64,000 nt of DNA from Nitrospirota bacterium (GTDB taxonomy: Bacteria; Nitrospirota; 9FT-COMBO-42-15; HDB-SIOI813), in NCBI GenBank assembly GCA_020851375.1, contig JADZCV010000045.1, positions 128,046 to 192,045 of the forward strand, in the 5' to 3' direction. This document shows, piece by piece, positions 5,339 to 26,566 of the stretch (within the stretch, counting starts at the first letter, position 1; the number at the start of each line of letters is the position of its first letter). The position numbers and the translations under genes are program-made. Below the pieces are notes generated by a model, which saw only the letters and a list, made by a program, of their open reading frames with translations, made no database searches and was not told the origin of the DNA.

Positions 5339-5339
5339 G

Positions 5340-6399: not shown

Positions 6400-6419
6400 T
6401 CTTCATCCTTGCCATGCAT

Positions 6420-8274: not shown

Positions 8275-8343
8275 ACGATACCCCCTTATCCGGCTGCATA
8301 TACGGCAATTTCGCAGTGTGGGCGTTAATCCCTCGGGCCGCAG

Positions 8344-8778: not shown

Positions 8779-8805
8779 TTCTCCTACCCCCTTCTGTTAA
8801 TACAC

Positions 8806-9771: not shown

Positions 9772-9780
9772 ATCATCTCT

Positions 9781-10311
9781 CTATTGCATCACGAACTCAG
9801 TGAAATAAACCGCTTTGACTTTCCCTGTGCTGACAAAATGATTGATCCTTGCAACCATATCATCCTGCAATTTCAGTTTTCCTCCCGTATCCTTTACATC
9901 TTCAGCCGTCTTGCTGGTCAGCAGCATAAGAATGGCATCTCTAATCTGAGGCGTCTTTGCTTGAATCTCTGCAGCCATTCCCTCAGATTCAACTTCCAGA
10001 TTTATCGTAATCTTAAGATATGTAACGTCAGACGGCTCAGCCAGGTTTACAACAAAGGGATCGAGCGACATTATATGTCCTGCAGCCTTTTCCTCATCAC
10101 GTTGCGCTTTTGCAGCCGCATTACCCGCGTCATCGCCTTTCTGAAGGAATAACTTCCATCCAGCGAATGCGCCTGCCAGAATCACTACGAGACCCGCGCC
10201 TATTATTACAAGGAGCATGAATTTCTTTTTAGACGGCTTTGGAGAAGCTGACTCACCCTCCCTGCCTTCTTTATCTTTTTCTCCGCCATCTGCATTATCA
10301 TCCTTTGCCAT
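9781..10311 (-). CDS. fliL: Flagellar basal-body-associated protein FliL
   Basis: Single N-terminal TM segment plus a periplasmic domain of FliL size. It is the first gene after the internal promoter; an SD GGGGGG lies 4 nt upstream of the ATG. Confidence 0.75.
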   Translation of the reverse strand: MAKDDNADGGEKDKEGREGESASPKPSKKKFMLLVIIGAGLVVILAGAFAGWKLFLQKGDDAGNAAAKAQRDEEKAAGHIMSLDPFVVNLAEPSDVTYLKITINLEVESEGMAAEIQAKTPQIRDAILMLLTSKTAEDVKDTGGKLKLQDDMVARINHFVSTGKVKAVYFTEFVMQ

Positions 10312-10364: not shown

Positions 10365-10382
10365 TTGCAATGTATATGCCAC
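10365..10382 (-). promoter_or_regulatory. Sigma-54 (-24/-12) promoter for the fliL-to-flhG operon
   Basis: The minus strand reads TGGCATATACATTGCA, giving GG-N10-GC spacing identical to the TGGCACG-N4-TTGCW consensus. It lies about 55 nt upstream of the fliL ATG. Confidence 0.5.
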
Positions 10383-10518
10383 AAAGCAGTGGATTTTATA
10401 ATTATTATATCCTCAATATTTCAAGTAGTTACAGATTAGAGCCGGAGCAGGTGCGGCAGATATGGCGTCAAACTCGCAATGACATGTCATGTAATTGACA
10501 TAACCTTATAAGACACAA

Positions 10519-10551
10519 ACAAAAAAGCCCCCTCAGATCATGAGGGGGCTT
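10519..10551 (-). terminator. Rho-independent terminator after flgE
   Basis: A 10-bp GC-rich stem (AGCCCCCTCA/TGAGGGGGCT) with a 5-nt loop, followed on the minus strand by a T-run. It sits 12 nt after the flgE stop. Confidence 0.7.
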
Positions 10552-10562: not shown

Positions 10563-11894
10563 TTATCTCTTCAGGTTTACAAGTTCCTCGAGCATTGAAT
10601 CAGTAGTTGTAATAATCCTTGAGTTTGCCTGAAATGCCCTCTGGGTTGTTATAAGCTTTATAAACTCCTCAGCGAGGTCTACATTTGACAGTTCGAGTGT
10701 ATTGGCTAATATCCTTCCGCGTCCGCCGCTGTCCGGAGCTCCAAGGACAGGCTGACCTGATTCATACGATTCTGCATACAGGTTTTTCCCGATCTTGCTC
10801 ATGCCGTCAGGGTTGGTAAATAACCCGATCACGACCTGACCAATGGTGTTTGTCTGTCCATTGGAGAATGACCCGCTTATTATTCCAGCCTGATTTACGC
10901 TCAAAGACTTCAATGAACCGGCAGAATAGCCGTCCTGATTCAGAAATGAGGTGCTCGACACTGCGCCAAATTGTGTTGTACCGTCAAGCCCTGACCCGCC
11001 ATTGGCAGTGCCTGTTCCAAAGTCAAAACCTATCACCTGATTCTGTTGTCCCCCGCCTGTAAAGCTGAAATCAGACATCAGGCCTGCCAGACCAAGGTCT
11101 GTCACAGGATTAATATCCATATCTGCTATATTCTCTGCAACAAGCGCTCCGCTCGTATCAAATTGCAGATACCCCCTTCCCATGACTTCTGTTCCGGCTA
11201 TACCTTTGGCAACTGCATTCCACTGCCAGTAATTTCCTGAGGCACCGGCCGTGTCTTCATGCACCTTGGTAAAGTATGTCGTAACAAGGTGCTGATTGCC
11301 AAGTGAATCATAAACTGTCATTGAATTGGAAAAATGATATGAGTTGCTGATGTTATTAATATCAAAGCCTGCTGCAATGGGCACTTCGCTTGAATCAAGA
11401 TTGGCGGTCATCTGGACTGTTGACGTTATGTTGGGCGGTGTAGTGGCTGCTGACACATCAATATTGTCTATATTGTTTGTAATGTTTCCCGCGTTGTCAG
11501 CCTGATAACATTGAAGGAAATATCCTTCCGGGTTTATTATGTAACCATCACTGTTTATATTGAACTGACCGGCCCTTGAATAGAATGAAGTGCCTGCGGA
11601 ATCATTAACAAGGAAGAACCCGTCACCATCAATGCCAAAATCAAGTGCGCTGGATGTTGATTCCATTGACCCCTGTGAAAACAGCGTTGAAACATCGCTC
11701 AGATATACTCCACGGCCTATCTGATTACCTGATGAGCCTGTAAGGCTCTGACTAAGGACGTCTGCAAAAGAAGCCCGGCTGGCCTTAAAACCAACTGTAT
11801 TAACGTTTGCAATATTGTTTCCTATAACTGAAAGTGAAGTACCGTTTGCATTAAGACCGCTGATTCCTGTGAATAGTGATGTTAATATTGCCAT
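10563..11894 (-). CDS. flgE: Flagellar hook protein FlgE
   Basis: N-terminal GISGLNANGTSLSVIGNNIANVNTVGFK and a C-terminal rod/hook domain ending LVNLKR. Confidence 0.9.
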   Translation of the reverse strand: MAILTSLFTGISGLNANGTSLSVIGNNIANVNTVGFKASRASFADVLSQSLTGSSGNQIGRGVYLSDVSTLFSQGSMESTSSALDFGIDGDGFFLVNDSAGTSFYSRAGQFNINSDGYIINPEGYFLQCYQADNAGNITNNIDNIDVSAATTPPNITSTVQMTANLDSSEVPIAAGFDINNISNSYHFSNSMTVYDSLGNQHLVTTYFTKVHEDTAGASGNYWQWNAVAKGIAGTEVMGRGYLQFDTSGALVAENIADMDINPVTDLGLAGLMSDFSFTGGGQQNQVIGFDFGTGTANGGSGLDGTTQFGAVSSTSFLNQDGYSAGSLKSLSVNQAGIISGSFSNGQTNTIGQVVIGLFTNPDGMSKIGKNLYAESYESGQPVLGAPDSGGRGRILANTLELSNVDLAEEFIKLITTQRAFQANSRIITTTDSMLEELVNLKR

Positions 11895-11959
11895 CTGTTT
11901 TCCTCCTTTATTTATTCCTGCCGGTCACAAGGGCCGGCACTGCATGCAGCTCATGTCTG

Positions 11960-12631
11960 TTAAATTTTCACATCCCTCACCTCCTCAATGTCAGTCAATG
12001 GTATCCTCATGCCTTGTATCATAAGATACGGGACGTCATTCTCATATGACACGCCATCCACAGCCCCGGTAATATTCGGCCTTATGTCCATTTCCTTTCC
12101 GTTGAGATCCTTTGCACTCACCTCGAATGTATACCCGCCGGCAGGCATGATGTTGCCGGAGTTATCCCTGCCATCCCAGACTGCGGTATGAATTCCACCG
12201 TCCTGAGGACCGGCATTTATACTCCTCACCGTCTTGTTGTCTTCATTTATAATCCTGATGACCACTTCACTTGCATCATCATTTAACTGATACCCGATCC
12301 CGGTTGAACCTTTAATGCCATCCATCGAAAGCCTGTTGCCTGAAGCCATGATATTTTTCCCGATGAAATTGACAACCTGCCTGTTATTCATATCAGTCTG
12401 ACCGCCTGTCAGCGTCTTCAGCCCGCTGTTAATCCCGGCCAGGTGGTCAAGGCTTGAAAACTGTGAAAGCTGTGTCACGAATTCAGTATGCTCCATCGGC
12501 TTTAACGGGTCCTGATACTGTAATTGTGTGACAAGCAGCCTCATAAAGTCCTCCTGACCAAGCGTCTTCTTAACCTCCCTGTCAACCTTACTGGTGGAAG
12601 CGAGCTCATTTCCTGCGATTGAACTAATCAT
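11960..12631 (-). CDS. flgD: Flagellar hook capping/assembly protein FlgD
   Basis: N-terminal FlgD motif QEDFMRLLVTQLQYQDPLKPM. Confidence 0.85.
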   Translation of the reverse strand: MISSIAGNELASTSKVDREVKKTLGQEDFMRLLVTQLQYQDPLKPMEHTEFVTQLSQFSSLDHLAGINSGLKTLTGGQTDMNNRQVVNFIGKNIMASGNRLSMDGIKGSTGIGYQLNDDASEVVIRIINEDNKTVRSINAGPQDGGIHTAVWDGRDNSGNIMPAGGYTFEVSAKDLNGKEMDIRPNITGAVDGVSYENDVPYLMIQGMRIPLTDIEEVRDVKI

Positions 12632-12649
12632 AATACCTCCTTCTTATTG

Positions 12650-13699
12650 TCATACAAAAATGCTGATACTGTTTGCACCTGACCCGATAATTGCACCTCC
12701 CGTGTCACATGCTGCAGCATCGTCATAAGGCAGGTCAGTCAATGGCATATCGTCAGACAAATCCCTCCTGCCCCTGTCAGAAAACCATCCGGGCATACTG
12801 CCATCATAACCGGAATACGATACATTTACGGTAAACTGATCAATATTCAGGCCTGATTTTTTCAATTCGTCAACAAGCGTGTCCAGGTTAGACTCCAGCA
12901 TGTCTTTCACGAGCTTTTCCTCAACAGTAACAATGGCCTTTATGCCGTCATCAGCGACAGAAATATCTATATGCATATTGCCAAGTTCTTCAGGCTGAAG
13001 TCTTATCCTGGCCGAATGGCCGCCTATGAAATACATGTCAGCCAGCTTGTCTGCTAACTGCGTTAGAACCCCTGTTCGCAGATTGTGTGAAGAACTATGC
13101 GCGGCCGCCTTAACGTTCCCGCCGGGATTTTCCATGTGCATATTCGGGATAATCTCCGGCTTTACATCAGTAGACGTATCAGCAGCATTATCCGATTGTT
13201 TACCTGATGCCTCACGTAATAGCTTCATATAAGGAGCGTCCATGAATGATTCAGGTCCATCCATGGCAAACATGGGGATATCAGTAACGGGTGAATAGCC
13301 ATTCTCATCTTTCAAACCATTGTCAGTCCGGTCATCATCACTACGTTCATTATGTGTGCGCAGAAGATTGCCAGGGGACAGAGAATCAGATTGTAATAAA
13401 TGTGTCTTTTGTAACTTTGCATCCCGCAGTTGAGCTGTCAAAGGGGTCAATTCAGATTGCAGCACGTCTGCATCCTGCGACTCACTGTCATGATTCAGGC
13501 CTGCAGAGAGAGACCCGAGTCCTTCATCCTTTGGAATAACGTTGTTGTCACCCTGTGCTGATAACATCAGAAGCAATGCTGAAAACATTTCACTGTTATC
13601 AACACCTGATTTATTTCTCCTGACGGCATTTGTTCTGTCTGACGTGCGTCCTGTATCAGCAGGTTTCTCTGCTGCAGCCATTGGAAACTGCGTGGTCAT
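12650..13699 (-). CDS. fliK: Flagellar hook-length control protein FliK
   Basis: Low-complexity N-terminus and a C-terminal Flg_hook-like domain; lies between ylxF-like and flgD as in the Bacillus fla operon. Confidence 0.65.
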   Translation of the reverse strand: MTTQFPMAAAEKPADTGRTSDRTNAVRRNKSGVDNSEMFSALLLMLSAQGDNNVIPKDEGLGSLSAGLNHDSESQDADVLQSELTPLTAQLRDAKLQKTHLLQSDSLSPGNLLRTHNERSDDDRTDNGLKDENGYSPVTDIPMFAMDGPESFMDAPYMKLLREASGKQSDNAADTSTDVKPEIIPNMHMENPGGNVKAAAHSSSHNLRTGVLTQLADKLADMYFIGGHSARIRLQPEELGNMHIDISVADDGIKAIVTVEEKLVKDMLESNLDTLVDELKKSGLNIDQFTVNVSYSGYDGSMPGWFSDRGRRDLSDDMPLTDLPYDDAAACDTGGAIIGSGANSISIFV

Positions 13700-14278
13700 T
13701 TATCTGTCAACCTTTCCCGATGCCATCCTGGCACTTAGTGACGCGGCCTTGTCAGGAGAAATTGAACCAAGTATCTTTCCTGCCTGTTTCCCTTTTATCC
13801 TCATTAGCAGATTAACGGCAAGATCCGTTTCCATTTTCTCTATCCTCTGAGCAGCCTCTTCAACGGACATTGATTCATAAAGCCTGGCCATACGTGTAAG
13901 GCTGTCCTGAGGTTTATTGCCTGCCGGACTGCTTTGCATCCTGTCACGCATGGCGGTATATTGCTTTAGTGACAGTTCTACAGAAGACCTTAACATATTC
14001 AGCCGTTCTTCATCCTTCTTCAAGGCCTCTTCCCGCTTTGAAAGTTCCCTCTCCCTGTCTTCAAGGGCCTTCATTATTGACTGAATGTCTTTTTCACCGT
14101 CATCAGACACTTCTCCGCCTGTACCGCCATCCGCCGGCTGAGCCGGTGATTCACCGTGTCCGTTGTCCTGTTTCTGAACAGCCACTGCCGGTACAAATAA
14201 AAACATACCTATAAGAAACGTAAACAGGATGGTCAGGTATATTACAGGTTCTTTTCTTTTTAACAATGAATTACTCAA
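13700..14278 (-). CDS. YlxF-like flagellar operon protein (single TM, coiled coil, MgtE-N-like C-terminal domain)
   Basis: N-terminal TM segment, a Glu/Lys/Arg coiled coil, and a C-terminal LARLYESMSVEEAAQRIEKM motif. Same position as B. subtilis ylxF between fliJ and fliK. Confidence 0.5.
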   Translation of the reverse strand: MSNSLLKRKEPVIYLTILFTFLIGMFLFVPAVAVQKQDNGHGESPAQPADGGTGGEVSDDGEKDIQSIMKALEDRERELSKREEALKKDEERLNMLRSSVELSLKQYTAMRDRMQSSPAGNKPQDSLTRMARLYESMSVEEAAQRIEKMETDLAVNLLMRIKGKQAGKILGSISPDKAASLSARMASGKVDR

Positions 14279-14718
14279 TTATTCCTCAGGTATCTGTTAT
14301 TGCTTATCTCATTCATCACTTTCTTATCTTCCCTGCTGACACCTTCCTTCTTCACGTCAATCTCTTTTTCTTTGGCCCTCTCCACAACCTTTTTATCCTG
14401 TGATGCTACTGTCAATGCCGTCTTTCTTTCATTGTATGTCCTGGTTACCTCAGCTACCCTCCGGCGTTGAACTTCCATATCAAGCGTTATCTGCTGCAGG
14501 TAGGAATGATACATGAATATTTCGTGAGGAGGCACCGACCGCTCCTGTCTTTCCTTTAATTCTTCCGCAGCACGATTGCATATCTCCTCAAGAGCAAAGA
14601 GTTTTTTTTCTTCAAGATCAAGTATCTCCAGAACTTCAGCCAGTTCATACTTCATAGTCTCCTCAAGAAATTCCCTGTATTTGAGAAGGGGATCGAACCT
14701 TATGCTTTTATGTTTCAT
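14275..14718 (-). CDS. fliJ: Flagellar export chaperone FliJ
   Basis: 147-aa all-coiled-coil protein directly after fliI. Confidence 0.65.
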   Translation of the reverse strand: MKHKSIRFDPLLKYREFLEETMKYELAEVLEILDLEEKKLFALEEICNRAAEELKERQERSVPPHEIFMYHSYLQQITLDMEVQRRRVAEVTRTYNERKTALTVASQDKKVVERAKEKEIDVKKEGVSREDKKVMNEISNNRYLRNN

Positions 14719-16040
14719 GCAGCCGCCTTTACTTCAAACAGTCTGGATAGTCTTTTTATACTATCCTCAATGGTAACCTTATCCTCTATCCCCTGGCGCA
14801 GGTAATCATTGATACGCTCAATCATGCTTATGGCATAATCTATGTCAGCATTGCTGCCATTCTTGTAAGCCCCTATATTTATCAGGTCTTCAGCCTTCCT
14901 GTACCTTGAAACGACTTCCCGCAGCTTCCTCGCGTCTGCCATGTGTTCAGGGGAAACAATGTCTATCATAGTTCTGCTGATGCTGCGAAGTATGTCAATG
15001 GACGGATAATGGTTGTGTGTTGCAAGATCCCTTGAAAGGACTACATGACCATCCAATATTGACCTTACAGCATCAACGATAGGGTCATTCATGTCATCCT
15101 CTTCAACGAGAACCGTATAGAGCCCTGTTATATTACCCTTACCAGCGCAGGTGCCTGCCCTCTCCAGTAATTTTGGAAGGACTGAGAAAACTGAAGGCGT
15201 ATATCCCTTGGTAGTAGGCGGCTCGCCTATGGCAAGGCCCACCTCTCTCATGGCCGTTGCAAACCTCGTAACAGAATCCATCATCAGCAGGACCTTTTTA
15301 CCGCAATCTCTGAAGTACTCGGCAATGGCCGTGGCAATATATGCCCCGCGCATCCGTATAAGCGGCGGTTGATCCGACGTCGCCACGATAACGACTGATC
15401 GTGCAAGGCCGGCATTCTTGAGGTCCTTATCCAGAAACTCTTTGACCTCTCTTCCCCGTTCACCGATCAGCGCAATCACATTCACATCTGCAGACGTATT
15501 TCTCGCCATCATGCCAAGGAGTACGCTCTTGCCTACTCCGCTGCCGGCAAATATGCCAAGCCTCTGTCCCTGACCGCATGTAATCAATCCATTCATGGCC
15601 TTGATGCCCAGGTCAAGTGGTTTTTCAATCCTGCGCCTGTCCAGCGGATTAAGAGGGGAATTATATATTGGATATTCCATCTTGCCTGCTATATCCCCCC
15701 TGCCATCAATGGGATTTCCAAGCCCATCAATAACCCGTCCAAGAAGATTCTCACCAACACGGACGACTGCCCTGTGTCGCTTTGCCATGATCTTACTGCC
15801 CGGACTCAACCCCCTTGTGTCTCCGAGAGGCATAAGCTGAATCTTCTCACCCTTAAATCCGACGACCTCAGCCTCTACAACATGAGATGCCTCTTTCGGA
15901 AAAATCTCACAAAGCTCGCCGATTGAAGAACCTGGTCCGTGTCCTTCTATAATAAGGCCTGTAATCTGAGTAACCTTGCCGTAGACCCTGATAGGATCTG
16001 TCTCGTTAATTATTTTGTGGTGCCTGGTCAGATTTAGCAT
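14715..16040 (-). CDS. fliI: Flagellum-specific ATPase FliI
   Basis: Walker A GSGVGKS and an F1/T3SS ATPase core; 441 aa. Confidence 0.95.
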   Translation of the reverse strand: MLNLTRHHKIINETDPIRVYGKVTQITGLIIEGHGPGSSIGELCEIFPKEASHVVEAEVVGFKGEKIQLMPLGDTRGLSPGSKIMAKRHRAVVRVGENLLGRVIDGLGNPIDGRGDIAGKMEYPIYNSPLNPLDRRRIEKPLDLGIKAMNGLITCGQGQRLGIFAGSGVGKSVLLGMMARNTSADVNVIALIGERGREVKEFLDKDLKNAGLARSVVIVATSDQPPLIRMRGAYIATAIAEYFRDCGKKVLLMMDSVTRFATAMREVGLAIGEPPTTKGYTPSVFSVLPKLLERAGTCAGKGNITGLYTVLVEEDDMNDPIVDAVRSILDGHVVLSRDLATHNHYPSIDILRSISRTMIDIVSPEHMADARKLREVVSRYRKAEDLINIGAYKNGSNADIDYAISMIERINDYLRQGIEDKVTIEDSIKRLSRLFEVKAAA

Positions 16041-16041
16041 A

Positions 16042-16683
16042 TTATTTGGCCGCTGTCAGTGCCCCCTTGATTACCTTAATCTGAGAATCTATTCTTGCAT
16101 CAATATCACCCTGATTGGTCTCAATCAGGCAGCCACCAGGCTGTACAGATTCATCCGCTTCAAATATGAGGCTCTTTATACCGTCAATGCACTGCAGCAA
16201 CTCTGAGCGTTTTTTATTCAGCGTATCATAATCAACCGGGGCAACCCTGATCCTCAGAACCTCCCTGTCTGATGCCCTCTTAATAGCCTCTTTTGCAATA
16301 TTTACAACAAGCTCACGGTCTTGCTCCACTGCCGCCCCTATTATCTTTCTTGCAATCATAACTGATATATCTACCACATCATTTTCAATCTTCCTGTATA
16401 ATTCATCTTTGAGTTTCTCTGCACCTTCTATCAGCCCCTTCATGATCTTTAGTTCAGTACCTATCTCCTTTAAGATCATCATCCTGCCCTTGTTCAGGCC
16501 ATCCTCCAACCCACTGTTATATGCAGCATCCCTGACATCCTGCATGACGTCAGAGTTCGGTTCCTCCTGACCTGCAGATGCCTTTCTGGCGGTCCCATCA
16601 TCAACTTTATTCAATTGAAATGGTCTTATATTCGATCTATCCTTAACCTCTGTTTTCAGAACCTTACCCGACACTTTGCACAT
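16042..16683 (-). CDS. fliH: Flagellar assembly protein FliH
   Basis: 213 aa, charged coiled-coil protein between fliG and fliI. Confidence 0.7.
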   Translation of the reverse strand: MCKVSGKVLKTEVKDRSNIRPFQLNKVDDGTARKASAGQEEPNSDVMQDVRDAAYNSGLEDGLNKGRMMILKEIGTELKIMKGLIEGAEKLKDELYRKIENDVVDISVMIARKIIGAAVEQDRELVVNIAKEAIKRASDREVLRIRVAPVDYDTLNKKRSELLQCIDGIKSLIFEADESVQPGGCLIETNQGDIDARIDSQIKVIKGALTAAK

Positions 16684-16702
16684 ACCCCTTTCATGTTATA
16701 TT

Positions 16703-17710
16703 TCAGGAAAGCATGTCATCACTTCCCTTGCCGCCTATAACAATCTTTCCCTCTTCCTCCAATCTCTTGGCAATCTTTAATATTGCCTGCTGGGATTTTT
16801 CGATTTCACTGACCCTGACAGGCCCCTTGGCCTCCATGTCTTCCTTAACCCCCTGTGCAGCCCTTTCCGACATATTCTTAAAGAATTTGGCCTTCAAATC
16901 CTCACCCGCACCCTTAAGGGAAATCATAAGGTCTTCCTTGCTGATCTCTTTCATAATCTCCTGCATACCCCTGTCATCTATGTTCATGAGGTCTTCAAAG
17001 ACAAACATCATCTTTCGTATAGCTTCCGCCAGATCCGGGCTGGTCTGTTCAATGCTGCTCATGATCGCCGATTCATTGCTCCTGTCAAGGCTGTTCAGAA
17101 TTTGTGCAGCCACATCAGGTCCACCGATCTTTTTTTCCACTATAGAGCCGCCCATTTGCAGTTCCTTATTCAGGACCTCTTCTATCTCTTTTATGACGCC
17201 GGGTGAAACCCCCTCTATTGTCGCTATCCTGTGCATTACATCGCCCCGTATTGCAACAGGAAGCAAAGAAACCACCCGGCTTGCATGATCAGCATCCAGG
17301 TGTGCCAGGATAAGCGCAATAGTTTGCGGATGCTCGCCTTTTACAAGATTTGCAATGCCGCGCGGATCAATCCATTTTAATGCCTCAAGGCCCTTGTCTT
17401 CGGATACTATAGCGAGGTTTTCCATCACCTTGCCTGCCCTTTCAGCACCCATAGCCTTTGTAAGCACAGCACGCATGTAGTCTTCACCGCCAAAAACAAA
17501 ACTGTCCGGTGATGTGGCAATCTCATGAAATTCCCTTACGACGGTCTTTACCTTCTCAGGCGCTATCTTGCTCGCCTTCGAAAGGTAATTGCCTATTAAC
17601 TTTATCTCCCTGGCATCGAGGTTTTTCATAACCTCAGATGCAACATCCTCACCCAGTGTCACCAAAAGGATTGCAGCCTTTTCATATCCATTATTCTGAT
17701 TCTCCGTCAT
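16703..17710 (-). CDS. fliG: Flagellar motor switch protein FliG
   Basis: 335 aa with the C-terminal torque-helix region. Confidence 0.9.
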   Translation of the reverse strand: MTENQNNGYEKAAILLVTLGEDVASEVMKNLDAREIKLIGNYLSKASKIAPEKVKTVVREFHEIATSPDSFVFGGEDYMRAVLTKAMGAERAGKVMENLAIVSEDKGLEALKWIDPRGIANLVKGEHPQTIALILAHLDADHASRVVSLLPVAIRGDVMHRIATIEGVSPGVIKEIEEVLNKELQMGGSIVEKKIGGPDVAAQILNSLDRSNESAIMSSIEQTSPDLAEAIRKMMFVFEDLMNIDDRGMQEIMKEISKEDLMISLKGAGEDLKAKFFKNMSERAAQGVKEDMEAKGPVRVSEIEKSQQAILKIAKRLEEEGKIVIGGKGSDDMLS

Positions 17711-17739
17711 ACCGTTATCCTCTCCCCATGATGAATGCC

Positions 17740-19353
17740 CTATTTTTCACTGATCCATGATTTAATTAATTTTGCCGTTTGCTGCGGATTCTCCCGGGCA
17801 ATTTTCAGCACCTCATTTCTTGCCATGACCTCTGAGTCCATCTTAAGAGGAGGATGTATGCCACCCTCAACCTCACCCGATGACTGGAAAACTCCGCTCA
17901 TTCCGCCTGGATAAGATGCAATCTGGGGTCTCGTTGCAAGAGCTGTCTTCATAAGCGGCTTTACAACAAACAGGAATACAAGCCCTGCTACAACCAGGGC
18001 AACGGCATACTTGATGAAGGGCAGCATGGCGGTCAGCTGAAACCTGGTCTCAGGCTCTGCTTCGGAGTCTGCGGATATTAATGATGACTCGAACGGTATA
18101 CTCAGCACCTCGACCTGATCTCCCCTTTCCTCGTTATATCCTATTGCTTTTTTTACAATTTCAGTATATTTGCCGAGCTCTTCAACTGTTCTCGGAATAT
18201 ATTTCCTCGTATCCTTGCCATCACTACCCTTGACAATCTCATAATTTCCATCTATCAGTATAGCTGCTGACAATCTCCTGATTGTCCCGGCAGCCTCTAC
18301 AATATGATTGACCGTCTTGTTTATTTCATAGTTTATTGTTTCCTGTGCCTTCCTGGATTGCGATGAAGTGCCCTTTGTATCGCCTGCGGCCTGAGGGTTT
18401 TCATTCCTGGCGGATGGAAGGTTTGAGACCACGCCCGGGATCCCTGACACCCCTCCTGAAGAGCCCGAAGCATTCTCCTGAACCCTTTGCTCGCTCCTGA
18501 CAGCAACAGTGTCAGGATCATACTTCTCTTCAGTCGTCTCTACCTGTTTGAAATCAAGAGTGCCCGATATACGAACAGAGACCTTGCCGGGCCCGACTGC
18601 CCTCTCGATCATGCTCTGCACCCTTTCTTCCAGTGACTTCTCAAGATTCCGCTGATACTCAATCTGATAAGTGGACATGTTTGCAGCATATCCGTCATCA
18701 GAAGGTTTTGATAATATATTCCCATGAGTATCAACAACCGATATATTCTGTGCGCTCAAACCCTCCACACTGCTTGCGACAAGGTGAACGATCCCATAGA
18801 TCTGGTTCTGGGACAACGTCCCCCCCCCTTTTATCTTCAACACCACAGATGCCCGGGCTGACTCTTTTTTCTCAGAGAACAGTGTCTTTTCAGGTACGAC
18901 CAAATGAACCCTGGCCTGCTCAACTTCACTAATCTGGCTGATGGTTCGGGCCAGTTCTCCCTGAAGCGCCCTCCTGTAATTTAATTTCTGGACAAAGTCA
19001 GTCATGCCGATGCTTGTCCTGTCAAAAATCTCAAATCCCACGCCGCCGCCTGAAGGTATCCCCTCACCTGCCAGCAGCAATCTCAGTTCATGAACTTTTT
19101 CATGAGGAACCAATACCGCATTTCCGTTCTGCAATTCATATGGCACCTTCAACTCCTTCAATTTCGCAGTAATTGTCCCTGCATCTTCAGTAGACAGGTT
19201 CGCATAAAGAAGCTGATATACCGGTTGATTAGCCCAAAGCACAACAGCTATCACCACGGCTATCATAGCGGCAACCCCAGCCACAGCCATTACCTTCTGG
19301 CCAATAGGTATCGCCGCAAATCTGCTTTGCAATTCGGAAGGATTAATCGCCAT
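17740..19353 (-). CDS. fliF: Flagellar MS-ring protein FliF
   Basis: 537 aa with an N-terminal TM segment, a large periplasmic domain and a C-terminal TM segment. Confidence 0.9.
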   Translation of the reverse strand: MAINPSELQSRFAAIPIGQKVMAVAGVAAMIAVVIAVVLWANQPVYQLLYANLSTEDAGTITAKLKELKVPYELQNGNAVLVPHEKVHELRLLLAGEGIPSGGGVGFEIFDRTSIGMTDFVQKLNYRRALQGELARTISQISEVEQARVHLVVPEKTLFSEKKESARASVVLKIKGGGTLSQNQIYGIVHLVASSVEGLSAQNISVVDTHGNILSKPSDDGYAANMSTYQIEYQRNLEKSLEERVQSMIERAVGPGKVSVRISGTLDFKQVETTEEKYDPDTVAVRSEQRVQENASGSSGGVSGIPGVVSNLPSARNENPQAAGDTKGTSSQSRKAQETINYEINKTVNHIVEAAGTIRRLSAAILIDGNYEIVKGSDGKDTRKYIPRTVEELGKYTEIVKKAIGYNEERGDQVEVLSIPFESSLISADSEAEPETRFQLTAMLPFIKYAVALVVAGLVFLFVVKPLMKTALATRPQIASYPGGMSGVFQSSGEVEGGIHPPLKMDSEVMARNEVLKIARENPQQTAKLIKSWISEK

Positions 19354-19402
19354 AACTATATGTTCCCTTTCTTGTCTTATCTCTCATAACCAGTCAACGA
19401 AA

Positions 19403-19457
19403 GTTGACGCTCAAAATCGTCCGGTTGCAATGTGTACCCCCGTTTTTCAGCGTCAAC
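19403..19457. repeat. Core-less mini copy of repeat family 1 (GTTGACGCTCAAAA ... TTTTCAGCGTCAAC) at the fliE/fliF junction
   Basis: Its terminal inverted repeats match those of the 120-bp elements at 27367, 54354 and 54678. An adjacent GTCAAC-gaaa-GTTGAC palindrome lies at 19393-19408. Confidence 0.4.
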
Positions 19458-19762
19458 TATACCTGGGTGCGCATTATTTCTTCATACGCACTTATTAACT
19501 TGTTCCTAACCTGCATCATCATCTGCAAAGACAGGTTCGCCTTTTCCACGGCAATCATCACCTGATGAATGTTCTGGTCTTTACCTGACAATAAATCCTG
19601 CACTGCCTGATCAGCCCCATTCTGCACTGTATTGACCTTTTCGACTGACCCCCTGAGCATCTCCGCAAATGAATTTACGGAGTCATCAATTTTTGCTGCG
19701 GACTTGTTGTCAGCTACGGGAAATACATTGGCCCCAATGCCGTTTATCTCCATTTTATTCAT
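19457..19762 (-). CDS. fliE: Flagellar hook-basal body protein FliE
   Basis: 101 aa in the conserved position after flgC. Confidence 0.8.
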   Translation of the reverse strand: MNKMEINGIGANVFPVADNKSAAKIDDSVNSFAEMLRGSVEKVNTVQNGADQAVQDLLSGKDQNIHQVMIAVEKANLSLQMMMQVRNKLISAYEEIMRTQV

Positions 19763-19783
19763 GACTCACCATCCCCTTCTTTC

Positions 19784-20194
19784 TTACCTGCCGATCTCCA
19801 GCGCCTTTTGAGCCATAGCCTTTGCAGAGTTTACTGCAGTAACATTGGCCTCATAGGACCTCGACGCCGACATCATATTAACCATCTCTTCAAGAAGGTT
19901 TACATTAGGAAGCTGCACATATCCTTCTTCATTGGCATCCGGATGCTGAGGATCAAATACAACCTGGAAAGGCCTTTTGTCTTCCACTATCTCTTTAACT
20001 TCCACTGCACCGGCACTGTTATCAAGGGCATTGTCAAGCACCTCTGAAAAGACAACATCCTTCCTCCTGTACGGACCGCCTTCCTGAGTATGCGTGGATT
20101 GAGCGTTGGCAAGATTGCCTGCAATTATATTCATCCGGATCCTCTGAGCCTCAAGACCTGATGCACTGATTGAAAAGATTTTTCCGATATCCAT
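19784..20194 (-). CDS. flgC: Flagellar basal-body rod protein FlgC
   Basis: N-terminal SASGLEAQRIRMNIIAGNLANAQST and a C-terminal rod domain. Confidence 0.9.
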   Translation of the reverse strand: MDIGKIFSISASGLEAQRIRMNIIAGNLANAQSTHTQEGGPYRRKDVVFSEVLDNALDNSAGAVEVKEIVEDKRPFQVVFDPQHPDANEEGYVQLPNVNLLEEMVNMMSASRSYEANVTAVNSAKAMAQKALEIGR

Positions 20195-20196
20195 AT

Positions 20197-20607
20197 TTAT
20201 CTCCCTTCTCTGATTGCGTTTGCAATCATTCTGAATTTTGTTGAAATAACCTGCGCTGAGGCATTATACAGAATAGAATTCTGTGCCATATTCGCCATTT
20301 CAAGCTCAACGTTAACACTGTTGTCATCATAGCCGGCATTGCTCTCAGGCCTGTTAATTACTGCTGCACCGCTGCTGTTCAAGCCGGTATCAGCGTTAAG
20401 ATGCATGGGATTTGTCCTTGATATCTGCTGCACCCCTCCGGAATTCTGCGCAGCCCTGAGTTCATCAGTAAAATTAATATCCTTGGCCTTATAGTGCGGT
20501 GTATCCTGATTGGCTACGTTGGCAGACAGCAGCTTATGCCTGTCACTCATCATATCAAGCGCCTTGGACAGGAATGAAATTGTATTATCGAATAGTGTCA
20601 TAGTCAT
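20197..20607 (-). CDS. flgB: Flagellar basal-body rod protein FlgB
   Basis: N-terminal rod motif SANVANQDTPHYKAKD; first gene of the operon. Confidence 0.85.
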   Translation of the reverse strand: MTMTLFDNTISFLSKALDMMSDRHKLLSANVANQDTPHYKAKDINFTDELRAAQNSGGVQQISRTNPMHLNADTGLNSSGAAVINRPESNAGYDDNSVNVELEMANMAQNSILYNASAQVISTKFRMIANAIREGR

Positions 20608-20622: not shown

Positions 20623-20640
20623 TTTGCAAACGATATACCA
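20623..20640 (-). promoter_or_regulatory. Sigma-54 promoter for the flgB operon
   Basis: The minus strand reads TGGTATATCGTTTGCA with exact GG-N10-GC spacing. The -12 element is only about 18 nt from the flgB ATG, giving a near-leaderless transcript. Confidence 0.45.
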
Positions 20641-20759
20641 TAGCCAGAATCATTTTATTTATTTTGTTTATCAATATGTTACAACTCACTTCATTCCACC
20701 TGCCCTGATTAATTCATTTCAGAGGGCACTTTGTTTCCACCTGAGCAGGCAATTTCTGC

Positions 20760-22115
20760 CTACACAATAATTCCTTCCTCCCTGTATTCGCTCAATTTAT
20801 TTCTAAGGGTGCGAATCCCTATGTTCAAAAGCTTTGCTGCTTTTGTCCTGTTCCAGTTGACATCCTCAAGGGTCTTAAGTATAAGGGCTGTTTCCATTTC
20901 CCGGACAGACATCCCTGCAGAAATGGAAGATGGCGTATTCCGGCTGTCTCTCTTACCCTCAATCATAAGGTGACCCGGAAGCAGAGTGTCGCCGTCGGCA
21001 ATCAGGATCGCCCTCTCTACAACATTCTCAAGCTCCCTGATATTCCCCTTCCAGTCATGGCTGATTAAGACATCCACGGCCTCATCTGATATTTTTGTAA
21101 CCGGGGCCCTGTTCCCGCGTGATCTATTGTCCTTAAGTTTCTTCATAAAGTGCCTTGCAAGTTCAGGGATGTCTCCCTTTCTGTCCTTCAGCGGAGGGAG
21201 TACCATCGGGAAGACGTTCAGCCTGTAGTAGAGATCCTCCCTGAATCTTCCCTCTTCCACCTCTCTTTTCAGCGTCCTGTTGGTTGTGGCAATAACACGG
21301 ATGTCAATATGAACAGGCTCTTTCCCGCCTATGGTGTCTACCTGCCTCTCCTGCAGCACCCTCAATAGCTTGGCCTGAAGCGGAAGACTCATCTCTCCCA
21401 CTTCATCAAGGAGCAATGTACCCGTATTTGCCTGTATAAACTTTCCGTTTCTCTTGCTGATGGCCCCGGTAAACGCCCCCTTTTCATGACCGAATAATTC
21501 ACTCTCAAGGAGTCCGTCAGGTATAGCCGCACAGTTTATGGCGACAAACGGATTTCCGGCCCTGTAACTTCTGTTATGAATAAACCTGGCAAGCATTTCC
21601 TTCCCGGTACCGCTCTCACCCTCTACCAGCACTGTAACATCACTAAATGCAATTTCCTGCGCAGTCTTTAATAATCTGAGCATACCAGGGTCTTTTGATA
21701 TAATAGCTGCTGCTTCTTTATCATCCGATGACGGTTTATTTGCATCCTGAACAGACTCAATACCACGTTTTACAAGGTCCTCAAGGGCATCCGCGGAAAA
21801 TGGCTTCATTATGTAGTCAAAAGCGCCCAGTTTCATCGCCTCAACTGCATTATCAATGGTGCCGTAAGCAGTAACAAGGATTACCGGGACATCAGGGGAG
21901 CGCCTTTTTACCTCCTTTAGCACATGAACTCCGTCGCCATTTGCCATCCTGACATCCGTTATCACCATGTCAAACTGTTTTGATGAAAACTTTCGTATAG
22001 CCTCATCTCCGCCGGATGCAATATCAACTGAATATCCACACCTCCTTAGTGTTTCACTCATGGCAAAACGCATTTCGCAGTCATCATCTGACAGAAGTAT
22101 TGTCCGCCCCATCAA
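20760..22115 (-). CDS. Sigma-54-dependent response regulator (NtrC family; FleR/FlrC/FlgR-like)
   Basis: Receiver domain with phospho-acceptor region (DMVITDVRM), AAA+ Walker A GESGTGKE, the GAFTGA sigma-54 contact motif, and a C-terminal Fis-type HTH. Confidence 0.85.
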   Translation of the reverse strand: MMGRTILLSDDDCEMRFAMSETLRRCGYSVDIASGGDEAIRKFSSKQFDMVITDVRMANGDGVHVLKEVKRRSPDVPVILVTAYGTIDNAVEAMKLGAFDYIMKPFSADALEDLVKRGIESVQDANKPSSDDKEAAAIISKDPGMLRLLKTAQEIAFSDVTVLVEGESGTGKEMLARFIHNRSYRAGNPFVAINCAAIPDGLLESELFGHEKGAFTGAISKRNGKFIQANTGTLLLDEVGEMSLPLQAKLLRVLQERQVDTIGGKEPVHIDIRVIATTNRTLKREVEEGRFREDLYYRLNVFPMVLPPLKDRKGDIPELARHFMKKLKDNRSRGNRAPVTKISDEAVDVLISHDWKGNIRELENVVERAILIADGDTLLPGHLMIEGKRDSRNTPSSISAGMSVREMETALILKTLEDVNWNRTKAAKLLNIGIRTLRNKLSEYREEGIIV

Positions 22116-22887: not shown

Positions 22888-24963
22888 TTAATTCAGTTGT
22901 CCTGAAGCATAGGCAATGTCTTTTATGCGCTCCTCAGAAATCTGTTTGACAAGATTATTATTGCCCCCGGATAACTTTGAGAACACCTTTTTGGCATCCT
23001 CCGCCCTTCCCAGCCTTAAAAGGCAGTCCCCTATCATAAACTCCACTGTATCAGAGCCTTCCTTAAGCCATCCCCCTTTTAATCCTGCATTGTATGCATC
23101 CATTGCCTCCTGGTACTTCTGCAATCCATAATAAGCATTGCCAAGCATGACATAACCATTTGACGCAAACCCGGCGTTTGGCTGTTTCCTGACACCTGTA
23201 AGCATATCCCTGAGGACAGCAATGCTGTCTTCATACTGAGTCCTGTTCTGCAACATGGTCGCAAGTTTTATATAGGCATCAGGATAGCGGTACGGTGCAT
23301 CTCTTATTACTGCATATAAATTATTGCTCGCCTTTTCATACTCTTTGAGGTTATAGAAACTGTTGCCGGCAAGAGCCCTTGCTTCATTTGTCATACTGCC
23401 GTCCGGGAATTCTGATAAAAGTCGTCCAAGCAGCCCGACCGCCTTTCTGTCATCACCGGACAAGGCATACAACTTTCCTGCGTTAAACAACGCCTGCTCT
23501 CTTCTGCTTCCATTTCTCTCAATAATGGCTTCATAGATCACATGTGCGTCATTGTAAAAGTGAAGCCCCTCATGCATGGCAGCTATACCCATGAGAAGTC
23601 CTTCGTTCTTCACATACCTGAGGTTATCCCTGTAAAAGGCATGGTATAGTTTAAGAACACCGGCCTTGTCACCCCGGTCAAGCCTGTCCCTTATCTTTAT
23701 CCCTATTCTGTCAATAGCATCGCTGAGCGCTTCTGAGACCTCACTTCTTAAATTACTGTCTGGATTATTGATAAGTTCGAGATAGACGTTAAATGACTGC
23801 TGGAGCCTGCCCTGTTCCTCCATTACTTTAGCTGTCTTAAACCTTGCTGTGGCAACAAGGACATTATTTTCTGAAGCTGTTTCAACATCCTTATAGTATT
23901 TCAACGTATCCTGATTGAACTTATCAGCCGGAATCGCCGGACGTCCGCGAGATGATCTGGCCTCCCTGTTGGATTGAAGCTTCATGTCCCCCAGTGCAAG
24001 CATACTCGAAAAGGAATCATCGCTGTCAGGGAAGTACATGATTACATCACGAAATATCTTCTCAGCAACAGGATAGTTTCGCGAAATGGCAAATGTCTCT
24101 GCCGCCCTTTTAAGGGCTAAACCGGCCTGACCGTCTTTTGGGTACAGATTATAAAAAGTCAGAAAGCCTTCCCTTGCCTTTATAATTTCTCCATTCTGAA
24201 ACTGACACTCACTATATTCATGCAGGATTTCAGGATTGCCTTTCATGTAGGCCGGCCATCTTCTTAGTCCCTCTTCAAAGTACTTTCTTGCATCACCAAA
24301 CTCATTGAGTAAAAAAAGTAACTCAGCAGCAAGGAATACCCTTTCCTTCTCCATCTTGCCATTGTATCTTAACATCAGCACATCAAGGTCTGACAATGCA
24401 TCTTTGAAATTACCCAACTTAAGATTGATAACTGCCAGCATATATTGTGCCCTTGCAGCAAACAGGGTTGACGGATAATCCTCGATCACCCTCCTGAAAT
24501 TTCCCTTAGCCTCAGCAATCAGGTTTAGATCAAGGTATATGTTGCCTGTCTCAAGAAGTATTTCCGGAATCTTTCCCTTTTCCCGTGCCGGACATAACCT
24601 CAGACCAAACTGAAATGACCGGAGCGCGTTCATCATAACCTTTTCATTTTTCCTGCCATCTCTTAATGCAAGCCAGCGGTATATGCTGCCTGCGTAGAGT
24701 GATGAGACAGCGGAGACTTCACTGTTCCTGCCGTCCATCGTAAACTGCACAAACTGATCAAGGGCCAGTTCGTAATTACCCCCCTTAAAAGCAACCAATG
24801 CCTCCTGGAATTCCTTCGCTCCGTCACCGTTCACCCTGTCTGTCCATGAAACGATAATCGTTTCAGGAGATGGAGGAAACAGGGCAGGCGTCTTGTATAA
24901 TACAGATGCGCTGGAGTCGCTTATGCTGAGAACGACAAATAGTAAGATAATAATTATCTGCAT
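22888..24963 (-). CDS. Periplasmic TPR-repeat protein (691 aa, signal peptide); first gene of the kinase/regulator operon
   Basis: N-terminal signal peptide and many 34-aa TPR-like repeats along the protein. Its stop lies 6 nt from the kinase start. Confidence 0.7.
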   Translation of the reverse strand: MQIIIILLFVVLSISDSSASVLYKTPALFPPSPETIIVSWTDRVNGDGAKEFQEALVAFKGGNYELALDQFVQFTMDGRNSEVSAVSSLYAGSIYRWLALRDGRKNEKVMMNALRSFQFGLRLCPAREKGKIPEILLETGNIYLDLNLIAEAKGNFRRVIEDYPSTLFAARAQYMLAVINLKLGNFKDALSDLDVLMLRYNGKMEKERVFLAAELLFLLNEFGDARKYFEEGLRRWPAYMKGNPEILHEYSECQFQNGEIIKAREGFLTFYNLYPKDGQAGLALKRAAETFAISRNYPVAEKIFRDVIMYFPDSDDSFSSMLALGDMKLQSNREARSSRGRPAIPADKFNQDTLKYYKDVETASENNVLVATARFKTAKVMEEQGRLQQSFNVYLELINNPDSNLRSEVSEALSDAIDRIGIKIRDRLDRGDKAGVLKLYHAFYRDNLRYVKNEGLLMGIAAMHEGLHFYNDAHVIYEAIIERNGSRREQALFNAGKLYALSGDDRKAVGLLGRLLSEFPDGSMTNEARALAGNSFYNLKEYEKASNNLYAVIRDAPYRYPDAYIKLATMLQNRTQYEDSIAVLRDMLTGVRKQPNAGFASNGYVMLGNAYYGLQKYQEAMDAYNAGLKGGWLKEGSDTVEFMIGDCLLRLGRAEDAKKVFSKLSGGNNNLVKQISEERIKDIAYASGQLN

Positions 24964-24975: not shown

Positions 24976-24993
24976 GAAGCAATAGACGTGCCA
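24976..24993 (-). promoter_or_regulatory. Sigma-54 promoter for the TPR-kinase-regulator operon
   Basis: The minus strand reads TGGCACGTCTATTGCT, a perfect TGGCACG-N4-TTGC consensus, ending 15 nt before the ATG. Confidence 0.55.
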
Positions 24994-25121
24994 GTAAATA
25001 TCACGGGACACTCGTTTTATAACTAATTGATATTGTGGATGAATTACATATTGAAAAGGATGGCGTGGTTTTATCTTGTCAATAACTTGACAAGATGGCA
25101 GTCAAAATATTTATTGCAGGA

Positions 25122-26519
25122 TCAGGCATTAATATGAAAGTCTAACTTCTTCTTCTTGAGTTTTTCCACAAGAGTAGTGCGATTTAAGGAGAGTAGCTGT
25201 GCTGCCTTATTCTTTACGCCCTGTGCCTTTTGCATGGCCTGAAGGATCAGGTTATTCTCAAACTCCTCTACGACATCCTTCAGATTGACACCGGTTTCAG
25301 GAAGGGTTACGTGCAGTGCGCGGGCGCCGTCTTTGCTTAACTTATGTGAAATGAATTTATCAGGCAGGTCTTCAGGACAAATAGTTCCATCGCCTTTGAG
25401 TATTACAAGTCTTTCAACAAGGTTCTCAAGCTCCCGTATATTCCCGGGCCAGGGATATGTCACAAGTATTTCCATTGCTGCAGGTGAAAATCCCTTTATC
25501 TCTCTCTTCTTTGACTTGTTGAAATAACTGAGGAAGTGATCCATCAACAAAGGTATATCATCTGTACGGTCTCTCAATGGGGGAATTACTACTGGTATTA
25601 CATTAAGACGATAATAGAGGTCTTCCCTGAACTTTCCTTCATGGACGGCTGTTTCAAGATCAATATTTGTAGCAGCAATAATCCTGACATCCACCTTAAT
25701 AGTCTTAACACCACCTACACGCTCGAACTCGCGCTGCTGCAGTACCCGGAGGAGTTTGACCTGAAGCGTCGGACTCATGTCGCCTATTTCATCAAGAAAT
25801 ATTGTCCCTCCGTCTGCAAGTTCAAATCTTCCAATACGAGTGCTGCTTGCACCGGTGAATGCGCCCTTTTCATGCCCAAACAATTCACTCTCCAGCAGTG
25901 TTTCCGGGATGGCGCCGCAATTTATCGGAATAAGAGGCTTATTCTTTCTTGGACTATTGTAATGTATGGTCCTTGCAACCATCTCTTTTCCAGTACCGCT
26001 CTCCCCAAGTATGAGGATAGTGCTGTCAGTCTCTGCAACCTTCTCTATGAGTGAACAGACTTTTTGAATACCTTCACTGCACCCTATGAGATTCTCAAAA
26101 CCATACCTCTGATGAAGACTCTTTTTAAGCTGACTATTCTCTGTCTGCAGGTCCTGTAATTCAATCACACGTTTCAGAAGTATTAAGACTTCCGTACCGT
26201 TAAATGGCTTCATCAGGTAATCATATGCGCCTGCCTTCATTGCATCTATTGCGTTAGATACAGTGGCATAGCCTGTAATGACTATGCAAGGCAAATCAGC
26301 ATCTATGGCCCTGATATTTTTAATGACATCAATACCGCTCATCCCAGACAGCATAAGGTCTGTAATTAATACATTAAACTTATCCCTGCCTGCTGCTTCC
26401 ATGGCTGACTGTCCATCTGCTGCAGCAGTTACCTCGTAGCCATTCATCGAGAGGAGAGTAATCATCGTCTCCCTGATGTCAGCATCATCATCTACAAGGA
26501 GAATGCGGGGGGATTTCAT
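25122..26519 (-). CDS. Sigma-54-dependent response regulator (NtrC family), second copy
   Basis: Receiver domain ([11 protein letters not shown]), AAA+ [14 protein letters not shown], and a C-terminal HTH. Confidence 0.85.
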
Positions 26520-26525: not shown

Positions 26526-26566
26526 ATCTTACAAATTCTTGACGCCAATGTCAACATTTATATAAT
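26526..26566. promoter_or_regulatory. Divergent sigma-70-like promoters sharing the palindrome TTGACgccaatGTCAA
   Basis: Plus strand: TTGACG-16 nt-TATAAT ahead of the fis-like gene. Minus strand: TTGACA-17 nt-TAAGAT ending 6 nt before the second regulator's ATG, so that transcript would be leaderless. Confidence 0.35.

Follow-up and report, generated by a model that had tools for sequence, protein, structure and literature searches.

A flagellar gene cluster with all of its features on the minus strand occupies one end of a 64-kb stretch of DNA from the Nitrospirota contig JADZCV010000045.1 (hereafter the window, 64,000 nucleotides at full length). The cluster includes genes for two sigma-54 activators of the response regulator type (the enhancer-binding proteins EBP1 and EBP2), a tetratricopeptide repeat (TPR) protein, a histidine kinase, and two long operons that begin with flgB and fliL. 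We identified three canonical sigma-54 promoters – each with an enhancer, a site resembling an integration host factor (IHF) binding site, and a -24/-12 element – and propose, at a probability of roughly 70%, that they are wired as a linear two-tier cascade.

In the first tier of this proposed cascade, EBP2 – a FleQ-like activator that would be made from a sigma-70-type promoter and whose receiver domain appears still phosphorylatable – would bind GTCA-N6-TGAC sites located some 100-120 bp before the TPR-operon and fliL promoters. EBP2 would thereby activate both the TPR/histidine kinase/EBP1 operon and the fliL-to-flhG operon, which encodes the C-ring, the export gate, FlhF and FlhG and, judging from near-identical contigs, has fliA directly downstream. 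In the second tier, the sensor-less kinase would phosphorylate EBP1. Phosphorylated EBP1, in a role like that of FleR or FlrC, would then bind GGCA-N5-TGCC upstream of flgB and activate the flgB-to-flgE operon (rod, MS ring, rotor, export ATPase, and hook), with transcription predicted to end at an intrinsic terminator. The proposal builds on sequence motifs, their conservation, their strict partition between promoters, the domain content of the encoded proteins, and the likeness of the EBP2 DNA-binding domain to that of FleQ, all of which can be read from the sequences themselves.

Conserved candidate sigma-54 promoters precede three operons

An original prediction, made from the letters of this stretch, placed sigma-54 motifs with GG-N10-GC geometry before the TPR-kinase-regulator operon, flgB, and fliL. 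All three motifs are present, with the earlier coordinates 1-2 nt wider than those that we assign (Table 1). Each site combines exact GG-N10-GC spacing with a TGGCAC-N5-TTGCW-type match and occupies a short non-coding interval directly before a co-oriented operon. The degenerate pattern TGGYAYN5TTGCW has four matches in the window versus 0.39 expected – a count reached in 0 of 100 shuffles – and the fourth match (28992-29007, minus strand) falls inside ilvD. Using a weight matrix with frequencies that approximate the Barrios et al. consensus, we found five sites that score at least 13.5 versus 2.5 expected, which is not significant alone. Non-coding sequence no more than 150 nt upstream of a co-oriented gene makes up 2.8% of position/strand space and holds three of these five top sites, a placement with a binomial estimate of about 2e-4. 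The other two are intragenic – the site in ilvD, which scores 16.2, and one at 50123-50138 (minus strand; 15.1) in a cpoB/ybgF-like gene – and are probably due to chance. Intragenic sigma-54 sites are known elsewhere.

To place these sites in a comparative setting, we used a FliF-anchored scan with one genome per species, which provided 79 loci (numbered with the prefix L). Uncultured Nitrospirota supply the nearest loci, with FliF identities of 81-64%, and loci of the genus Nitrospira come next at about 46%. The gene order EBP2/TPR/kinase/EBP1/flgB is kept through Nitrospira and some genomes labelled Deltaproteobacteria. All three sigma-54 sites recur at orthologous positions in related Nitrospirota, including the genus Nitrospira. 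The TPR-operon site is conserved in L001-L003, L006, the Nitrospira loci, and L024/L026/L064/L073, and a sigma-54-type site before flgB or flgC is found in many phyla, among them loci with the labels Nitrospinota, Zixibacteria, Fibrobacterota, Calditrichota, and Planctomycetia. In MAFFT alignments of the three upstream regions, invariant blocks are confined to the enhancer palindrome, the IHF-like block, the -24/-12 element, and the start codon. Conservation of the sites spans loci with FliF proteins that are only 46-81% identical and flanking DNA that is unalignable.

From the -24/-12 elements, we predict a TPR-operon transcription start near 24967, which would put the TPR ATG at about +5 (a leader of about 4 nt), and a flgB start near 20614, which would put the flgB ATG at about +8 (a leader of about 7 nt). 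The promoter-to-ATG spacing is kept in L001-L004, and Nitrospira loci have normal leaders with a Shine-Dalgarno sequence. For fliL, the start is predicted near 10355, and the predicted leader, 44 nt long, contains a GGGGGG Shine-Dalgarno sequence.

Could the motif matches be chance or non-functional, with the operons transcribed from sigma-70-type or sigma-28-type promoters? The unexceptional window-wide number of strong matrix matches and the equally good site inside ilvD would be consistent with this explanation, but it has to contend with orthologous conservation at loci where flanking DNA can no longer be aligned, with the conserved enhancers and IHF sites that go with the motifs, and with the two dedicated GAFTGA activators encoded adjacently. 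Scanning the promoter regions for the sigma-28 consensus gave no match. What sigma-70-like sequence there is around the three start codons matches weakly (9 of 12) and is misplaced, at or past those codons. We thus consider a chance origin extremely improbable. The three sites are well supported as real, conserved sigma-54 promoters, with sigma-54 dependence and start sites predicted from the motifs.

A weaker sigma-54-like site had also been suggested before fliF (19425-19441). We rejected this candidate: it scores below 9 with the matrix, departs from the consensus in the -24 region, has a displaced GG in L001, and lies in a hairpin loop within a fliE-fliF spacer that L004-L007 and L022 lack entirely. 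An inverted repeat in this spacer (19402-19458, minus strand) has 18-nt arms that are 89% complementary and a 21-nt loop; it overlaps the fliE stop codon and has a predicted RNA fold of -26.4 kcal/mol (z = -2.8), with the arms present in L003 too. This hairpin may be an intra-operon processing or stability element.

Two enhancer types are partitioned between the promoters

The pattern GTCA-N6-TGAC (enhancer A) has just two matches in the window, both upstream of sigma-54 sites. At the TPR operon, it is the core of a perfect, FleQ-box-like palindrome that begins 98 nt upstream of the -24/-12 motif (centre at about 91 nt). At fliL, it begins 118 nt upstream of the -24/-12 motif and is accompanied by a conserved additional half-site, TTTGACGCC, at 10464-10472. 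Across the related loci, exact GTCA-N6-TGAC is found at -98 to -118 before 18 of 20 TPR-operon promoters (the two others have an exact box at -193, in L006, and a box with one mismatch, in L073) and at -115 to -127 before 11 of 11 fliL promoters. It never precedes the flgB promoters of the related loci compared and, with an AT-rich spacer, occurs almost nowhere else in the loci.

A different palindrome near fliL, ATGACATGTCAT (10479-10490), had been put forward as the enhancer of this promoter. Although the palindrome is present in the window, it is not conserved (the sequence is ATGACATTGTAT in L001 and CTGACACAGCAA in L002), and we rejected it as an enhancer. The conserved element is the GTCA-N6-TGAC box at 10486-10499, which overlaps the palindrome by just 5 nt.

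The flgB promoter is associated with a second type of palindrome, GGCA-N5-TGCC (enhancer B), which begins 120 nt upstream of the -24/-12 motif and abuts the EBP1 stop codon. About 23 bp farther downstream (about 20725-20738), there is a second, degenerate half-site. With zero to one mismatch, GGCA-N5-TGCC is present at -83 to -124 before flgB in 22 of 23 loci, and there is no match at TPR-operon or fliL promoters within the interval from -83 to -127. Only two stray one-mismatch copies were found at TPR-operon or fliL promoters, in L073 (-74) and L012 (-20).

Palindromes of the form GGCAAA-N-TTTGCC or GGCAAAAATTCCC were also observed before the flgB sigma-54 promoter in L028, L029, L044, L049, L054, L055, L058, L059, and L076. 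The labels of these loci are Eisenbacteria, Saccharimonadales (L029), Zixibacteria, Fibrobacterota, Deltaproteobacteria (L058), Poribacteria, and Planctomycetia, and in L028 (about 8426-8460) the palindromes form a tandem pair 22 bp apart. These observations suggest that the flgB enhancer is very widespread across phyla.

IHF consensus sites with conserved blocks lie between enhancer and promoter at the TPR operon and at flgB, and the fliL promoter has an imperfect match to WATCAANNNNTTR, with one mismatch. The Pseudomonas FleQ box has the sequence GTCAAT-N2-ATTGAC and is usually found once upstream of a flagellar operon (PMC10723142; PMC6120874 quoting Baraquet & Harwood 2016). Perfect FleQ boxes occur in L002 and L003, and the copies in the window differ from the FleQ box at inner positions only.

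The two activators differ in their DNA-binding domains

Two adjacent sigma-54 enhancer-binding response regulators had been predicted in the cluster, and domain searches agree: EBP1 and EBP2 both consist of a REC domain, a sigma-54 AAA+ domain with GAFTGA, and an HTH_8 domain. Both receivers keep every CheY-type catalytic residue. In an alignment to a CheY reference sequence, EBP2 conserves residues D12, D13, D57, T87, and K109, and its receiver matches Response_reg (PF00072) with an E of 3e-28. The Pfam FleQ domain (PF06490) has no match in EBP2 at E <= 0.001.

When EBP2 was compared to all PDB sequences, Pseudomonas aeruginosa FleQ was the top match both for the full-length protein (356 bits) and for the C-terminal 64 residues (E 8e-8), in which the recognition segment RTTLVEK is identical. 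The EBP2 AAA+ domain scores 313 bits against FleQ versus 254 bits against FlrC, and the EBP1 AAA+ domain scores 241 bits against FleQ versus 267 bits against Vibrio cholerae FlrC. For EBP1 as a whole, NtrC4 and NtrC1 are the best PDB matches, and Aquifex NtrC4 comes first for its helix-turn-helix (HTH) domain alone.

EBP2 departs from FleQ at several positions. Its phospho-acceptor Asp aligns with a Ser in FleQ. FleQ residues R144, R185, E330, and R334 of the AAA+ domain bind cyclic di-GMP (c-di-GMP; PMC10723142); in an alignment to PDB 8p53, R144 is replaced by E, E330 by H, and R334 by Y in EBP2, and R185 alone is kept. By these sequence features – the acceptor Asp, the lack of a FleQ-domain match, and the missing R144, E330, and R334 – EBP2 is outside the FleQ family in the strict sense.

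The recognition helix of each activator is invariant among the Nitrospirota loci that keep the corresponding box. The EBP1 HTH motif RTLRNKL is invariant in Nitrospirota loci, L024, L028, L029, and L073, with slight variation in L026/L064 and L076. In four loci labelled Deltaproteobacteria (L024, L026, L064, and L073), KRTTFVEMLKRK replaces the window-type recognition helix in the EBP2 orthologue, and the right half of the box is CTGAC (L024, L026, and L064) or CCGAC (L073) instead of TTGAC. The paired changes may reflect protein-DNA co-variation.

EBP2 stands alone behind a predicted sigma-70-type promoter, the -35 and -10 elements of which are invariant in L001-L003. With 6 nt between the end of the -10 element and the ATG, the EBP2 mRNA is predicted to be leaderless. 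Everted half-sites, TTGAC-N6-GTCAA (about 26536-26554), cover the -35 element and spacer and are invariant in the window and L001-L003; they could represent an autoregulatory operator or a site for the product of the divergent gene. This gene (26605-27048, plus strand) encodes a 147-amino acid Fis-like protein with a C-terminal HTH_8 domain that is 82-87% conserved in L001-L003, and has a near-consensus sigma-70-type promoter, TTGACG-16-TATAAT, at 26539-26566.

The Fis-like protein raises the question of whether a protein other than the two activators binds the palindromes. Under this explanation, the promoters would still be sigma-54-dependent, with the palindromes bound by the Fis-like protein or a repressor and with the activators using other enhancers or none. 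Its gene is next to that of EBP2 and the protein is highly conserved in L001-L003, and DNA binding is dispensable for the action of certain flagellar activators, FlgR among them. Set against this, the Fis-like gene was detected in L001-L003 only – a search for it next to EBP2 in the Nitrospira loci gave nothing – whereas both palindromes are kept through the genus Nitrospira and beyond. EBP1 and EBP2 both keep intact, invariant HTH_8 domains, and placement at -100 to -120, with an intervening IHF site, is the classical geometry of an activator site. Binding by another protein thus seems quite improbable.

Enhancer type and helix similarity favor a linear cascade

The original prediction took the sigma-54 promoter of the TPR operon to imply that the two-component system is RpoN-dependent, with auto-activation or a feed-forward loop as a possibility. 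The operon does lie behind such a promoter, but auto-activation is not the best reading, since the operon shares its enhancer type with fliL and this enhancer matches the FleQ box. An explicit version of auto-activation would have the wiring swapped, with EBP1 acting on GTCA-N6-TGAC to drive its own operon and fliL, and EBP2 acting on GGCA-N5-TGCC to drive flgB. The presence of the TPR-kinase-EBP1 operon behind a sigma-54 promoter fits this wiring, positive autoregulation is common in two-component systems, and the recognition helices of EBP2 and FleQ are not identical. Nevertheless, we regard swapped wiring as unlikely on three grounds. Among solved structures, the HTH of EBP2 is closest to FleQ and that of EBP1 to NtrC4, and the box in question is the FleQ box. 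An operon reachable solely via its own product needs another entry, for which EBP2, with its conserved sigma-70-type promoter, would be the natural candidate. Finally, GGCA-N5-TGCC-like sites co-occur with RTLRNKL EBP1-type regulators by flgB in phyla without the EBP2/TPR arrangement. Because the TPR operon has the enhancer type of fliL and not that of flgB, and because this enhancer is of the FleQ-box type and the HTH of EBP2 is FleQ-like, we favor the linear cascade.

The predicted second tier contains a minimal kinase. Neither a sensor domain nor a PAS or transmembrane domain was detected in this protein. Consistent with a flagellum-associated two-component system, a cytoplasmic kinase and an NtrC-type regulator are encoded together beside flagellar genes in a cluster that contains flhF and flhG. 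We checked orthology with the NCBIfam models for FlgS and FlgR. Scores fell below the cut-offs for FlgS (79 bits; cut-off 600) and FlgR (339 bits; cut-off 750), as they did for FlbD (413 bits; cut-off 750); by these models, the kinase and EBP1 are not FlgS/FlgR orthologues and have generic, family-level similarity only. At its N-terminus, the TPR protein has a hydrophobic segment that resembles a signal sequence. Its homologues come from Nitrospirota metagenome-assembled genomes only, where they are annotated merely as 'tetratricopeptide repeat protein', and one of them, on a 345-kb contig, is 100% identical.

Several observations weigh against the proposed cascade. We infer both the activator-enhancer pairings and the transfer of phosphate from kinase to EBP1, and the assignment of EBP1 to enhancer B draws on exclusion, adjacency, and co-conservation only; a literature search for a published FleR binding site gave none of use. 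On the EBP2 side, N-R takes the place of FleQ R467-R468, a pair proposed to read the ends of the FleQ box (PMC10723142), and the FleQ box has been reported to be unreliable as a genome-wide predictor in Pseudomonas fluorescens (PMC6120874). The leaders predicted for the TPR operon and flgB are unusually short, no terminator was found between EBP2 and the TPR operon, so that read-through is possible, and rpoN was not found in the window. The placement of fliF and fliG in the proposed tier-2 operon is a further difficulty. In Campylobacter, Vibrio, and Pseudomonas, fliF and fliG must be made before the two-component system is activated, and the checkpoint of FlgSR, FlrBC, and FleSR requires that the export gate, MS ring, and rotor have already been assembled (PMC7064773). 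With fliF and fliG in the predicted tier-2 operon, this checkpoint therefore cannot apply unchanged here.

Genomic setting of the cluster

NCBIfam and Pfam matches bear out the gene calls of the original prediction. The TPR protein, histidine kinase, and EBP1 genes form one block in which the histidine kinase stop codon overlaps the EBP1 start codon, and flgB lies directly downstream of EBP1.

Table 1. Positions of flagellar genes and predicted regulatory elements in the window.
Feature	Coordinates	Strand	Evidence or remark
EBP2 (sigma-54 activator response regulator)	25122..26519	-	Stands alone; Pfam, NCBIfam
Sigma-70-type promoter of EBP2, TTGACA-17-TAAGAT	26526..26554	-	Second-best sigma-70-like match in 9-27.5 kb
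Enhancer A at TPR operon, perfect palindrome ATCTTGTCAA-taac-TTGACAAGAT	25073..25096	.	Core GTCA-N6-TGAC at 25078-25091
IHF consensus site TATCAATTAGTTA, between TPR-operon enhancer A and promoter	25020..25032	-	Matches WATCAANNNNTTR; ATCA..TAGTTA block conserved
Predicted sigma-54 -24/-12 promoter, TPR-kinase-EBP1 operon, TGGCACGTCTATTGCT	24978..24993	-	Matrix score 18.6, top score of the window
TPR protein, 691 amino acids, N-terminal signal peptide or membrane anchor	22888..24963	-	First gene of operon
Histidine kinase, 256 amino acids	22112..22882	-	HisKA + HATPase_c
EBP1 (sigma-54 activator response regulator)	20760..22115	-	Pfam, NCBIfam
Enhancer B, palindrome GGCAGAAATTGCC (GGCA-N5-TGCC)	20748..20760	.	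Invariant alignment block
IHF consensus site TATCAATATGTTA, between enhancer B and flgB promoter	20669..20681	+	AAC-N4-TTGA block conserved
Predicted sigma-54 -24/-12 promoter, flgB operon, TGGTATATCGTTTGCA	20625..20640	-	Matrix score 13.9
flgB-flgC-fliE-fliF-fliG-fliH-fliI-fliJ-(192-amino acid MgtE_N protein)-fliK-flgD-flgE	10563..20607	-	NCBIfam; Pfam for the 192-amino acid protein
Intrinsic terminator after flgE, 11-bp GC-rich stem then T-run	10525..10551	-	Best terminator match in region; inverted repeat
Enhancer A at fliL, GTCAATTACATGAC (10486-10499) plus half-site	10464..10499	.	Invariant alignment blocks
Predicted sigma-54 -24/-12 promoter, fliL operon, TGGCATATACATTGCA	10366..10381	-	Matrix score 16.3
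fliL-fliM-fliN-fliO-fliP-fliQ-fliR-flhB-flhA-flhF-flhG (MinD-like)	17..10311	-	

At the end of the fliL-to-flhG operon, directly after flhF, a MinD/ParA-type ATPase gene (flhG; 17-907) encodes a putative FleN/FlhG partner within the flagellar cluster. On the near-identical contigs L080 and L081, a gene for a FliA/WhiG sigma factor (271 bits; cut-off 190) follows 14 nt past flhG, at 1533-2312 in L080 and 1334-2113 in L081; the corresponding position is just beyond the start of the window. Given this 14-nt distance, the sigma-28 gene fliA is probably co-transcribed with the fliL-to-flhG operon. The next gene in L080/L081 encodes a large (659-amino acid) HEAT-repeat protein. Within the operon, the open reading frame at the fliO position (7195-8274, minus strand) encodes 359 amino acids with a FliO domain only at residues 256-325. 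It has either a long N-terminal extension or a mis-called start codon, and overlaps the start of fliP.

The remainder of the window contains no further flagellar operons. It includes ilvD, dinB, lexA, chrA, tol-pal, mutL, miaA, hfq, and defence genes. The lexA-dinB pair is at 30688-32836 (minus strand), and a DISARM DrmD-like SNF2 helicase (928 amino acids) together with a MAD2/HsdM-like methyltransferase at 57877-63059 (minus strand) marks a probable defence island. An Rfam scan found only three tRNAs, with no match in the flagellar cluster.

Relationship to characterized flagellar hierarchies

The proposed arrangement provides a concrete map of flagellar control in Nitrospirota, consisting of three promoters, two enhancer types, IHF-like sites, and a terminator. 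This phylum is ecologically important and mostly uncultured, includes nitrite oxidisers, and has had its motility regulation so far guessed from gene names. The FleQ box and a FleQ-type recognition helix are conserved far outside Proteobacteria, which could be used to predict flagellar regulons in metagenome-assembled genomes and bears on the evolution of the phosphorylation-independent, c-di-GMP-responsive FleQ of Pseudomonas. A broader scenario, which we hold to be doubtful as a whole, is that an ancient FleQ-type domain, box, and cascade are common to Nitrospirota and Gammaproteobacteria, that EBP2 represents the ancestral form, and that the TPR protein and sensor-less kinase constitute a new checkpoint. 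If this joint scenario were true, the phosphorylation-dead, c-di-GMP-sensing FleQ would have derived from a phosphorylatable EBP2-like form, and an undescribed TPR-plus-kinase checkpoint would monitor the export gate and C-ring, not the MS ring and rotor.

Campylobacter and Helicobacter FlgSR (Burnham, Kolar & Hendrixson 2020, PMC7064773) also pairs a cytoplasmic kinase that lacks a transmembrane domain with an NtrC-type regulator, both encoded next to flagellar genes. As in the 'polar flagellar transcriptional program' described for FlgSR, FlhF and FlhG co-occur and rod and hook genes would be expressed from sigma-54 promoters. The FlgSR system differs in that its kinase is switched on once the export gate, MS ring, and rotor are complete, structures with sigma-70-dependent genes, whereas here fliF and fliG are in an operon predicted to be under the two-component system and a FleQ-like upper tier is present. 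The Caulobacter crescentus protein FlbD is likewise a receiver-domain sigma-54 activator, with dyad enhancers about 100 bp upstream and IHF-assisted flagellar promoters (PMC3930126), and is the third-best NCBIfam match of EBP1, below the cut-off. Unlike the regulator proposed here, FlbD is controlled by FliX and not by a cognate kinase. The FlbD enhancers, called ftr, may resemble GGCA-N5-TGCC in sequence.

The closest parallels are the four-tier hierarchy of P. aeruginosa, in which FleQ acts above FleSR, and that of V. cholerae, in which FlrA acts above FlrBC. In both, as proposed here, a top sigma-54 activator drives a kinase/regulator operon and the fliL-to-flhG genes, and a second activator drives the flgB rod and hook genes (PMC10723142; PMC5767232). 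Further likenesses to FleQ/FleSR are a fliA gene at the end of the flhA-flhF-flhG block and a single-copy GTCAAT-N2-ATTGAC enhancer upstream. There are also differences. EBP2 has a receiver with a canonical phospho-acceptor, whereas FleQ has a Ser there and is phosphorylation-incompetent; the kinase is without a sensor domain, PAS or otherwise, and its operon starts with the gene for a TPR protein that is secreted or anchored; fliE-F-G-H-I-J are in the flgB (tier-2) operon because the gene order is Bacillus-like; and the host phylum is Nitrospirota. FleQ and FleSR homologues have been noted in Nitrospira genomes by Ushiki et al., with FleQ suggested as the master regulator there (PMC5767232). 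The analysis reveals no new kind of mechanism. What is new here is the cis-regulatory map; the cascade arrangement itself is largely expected, paralleling FleQ/FleSR and FlrA/FlrBC.

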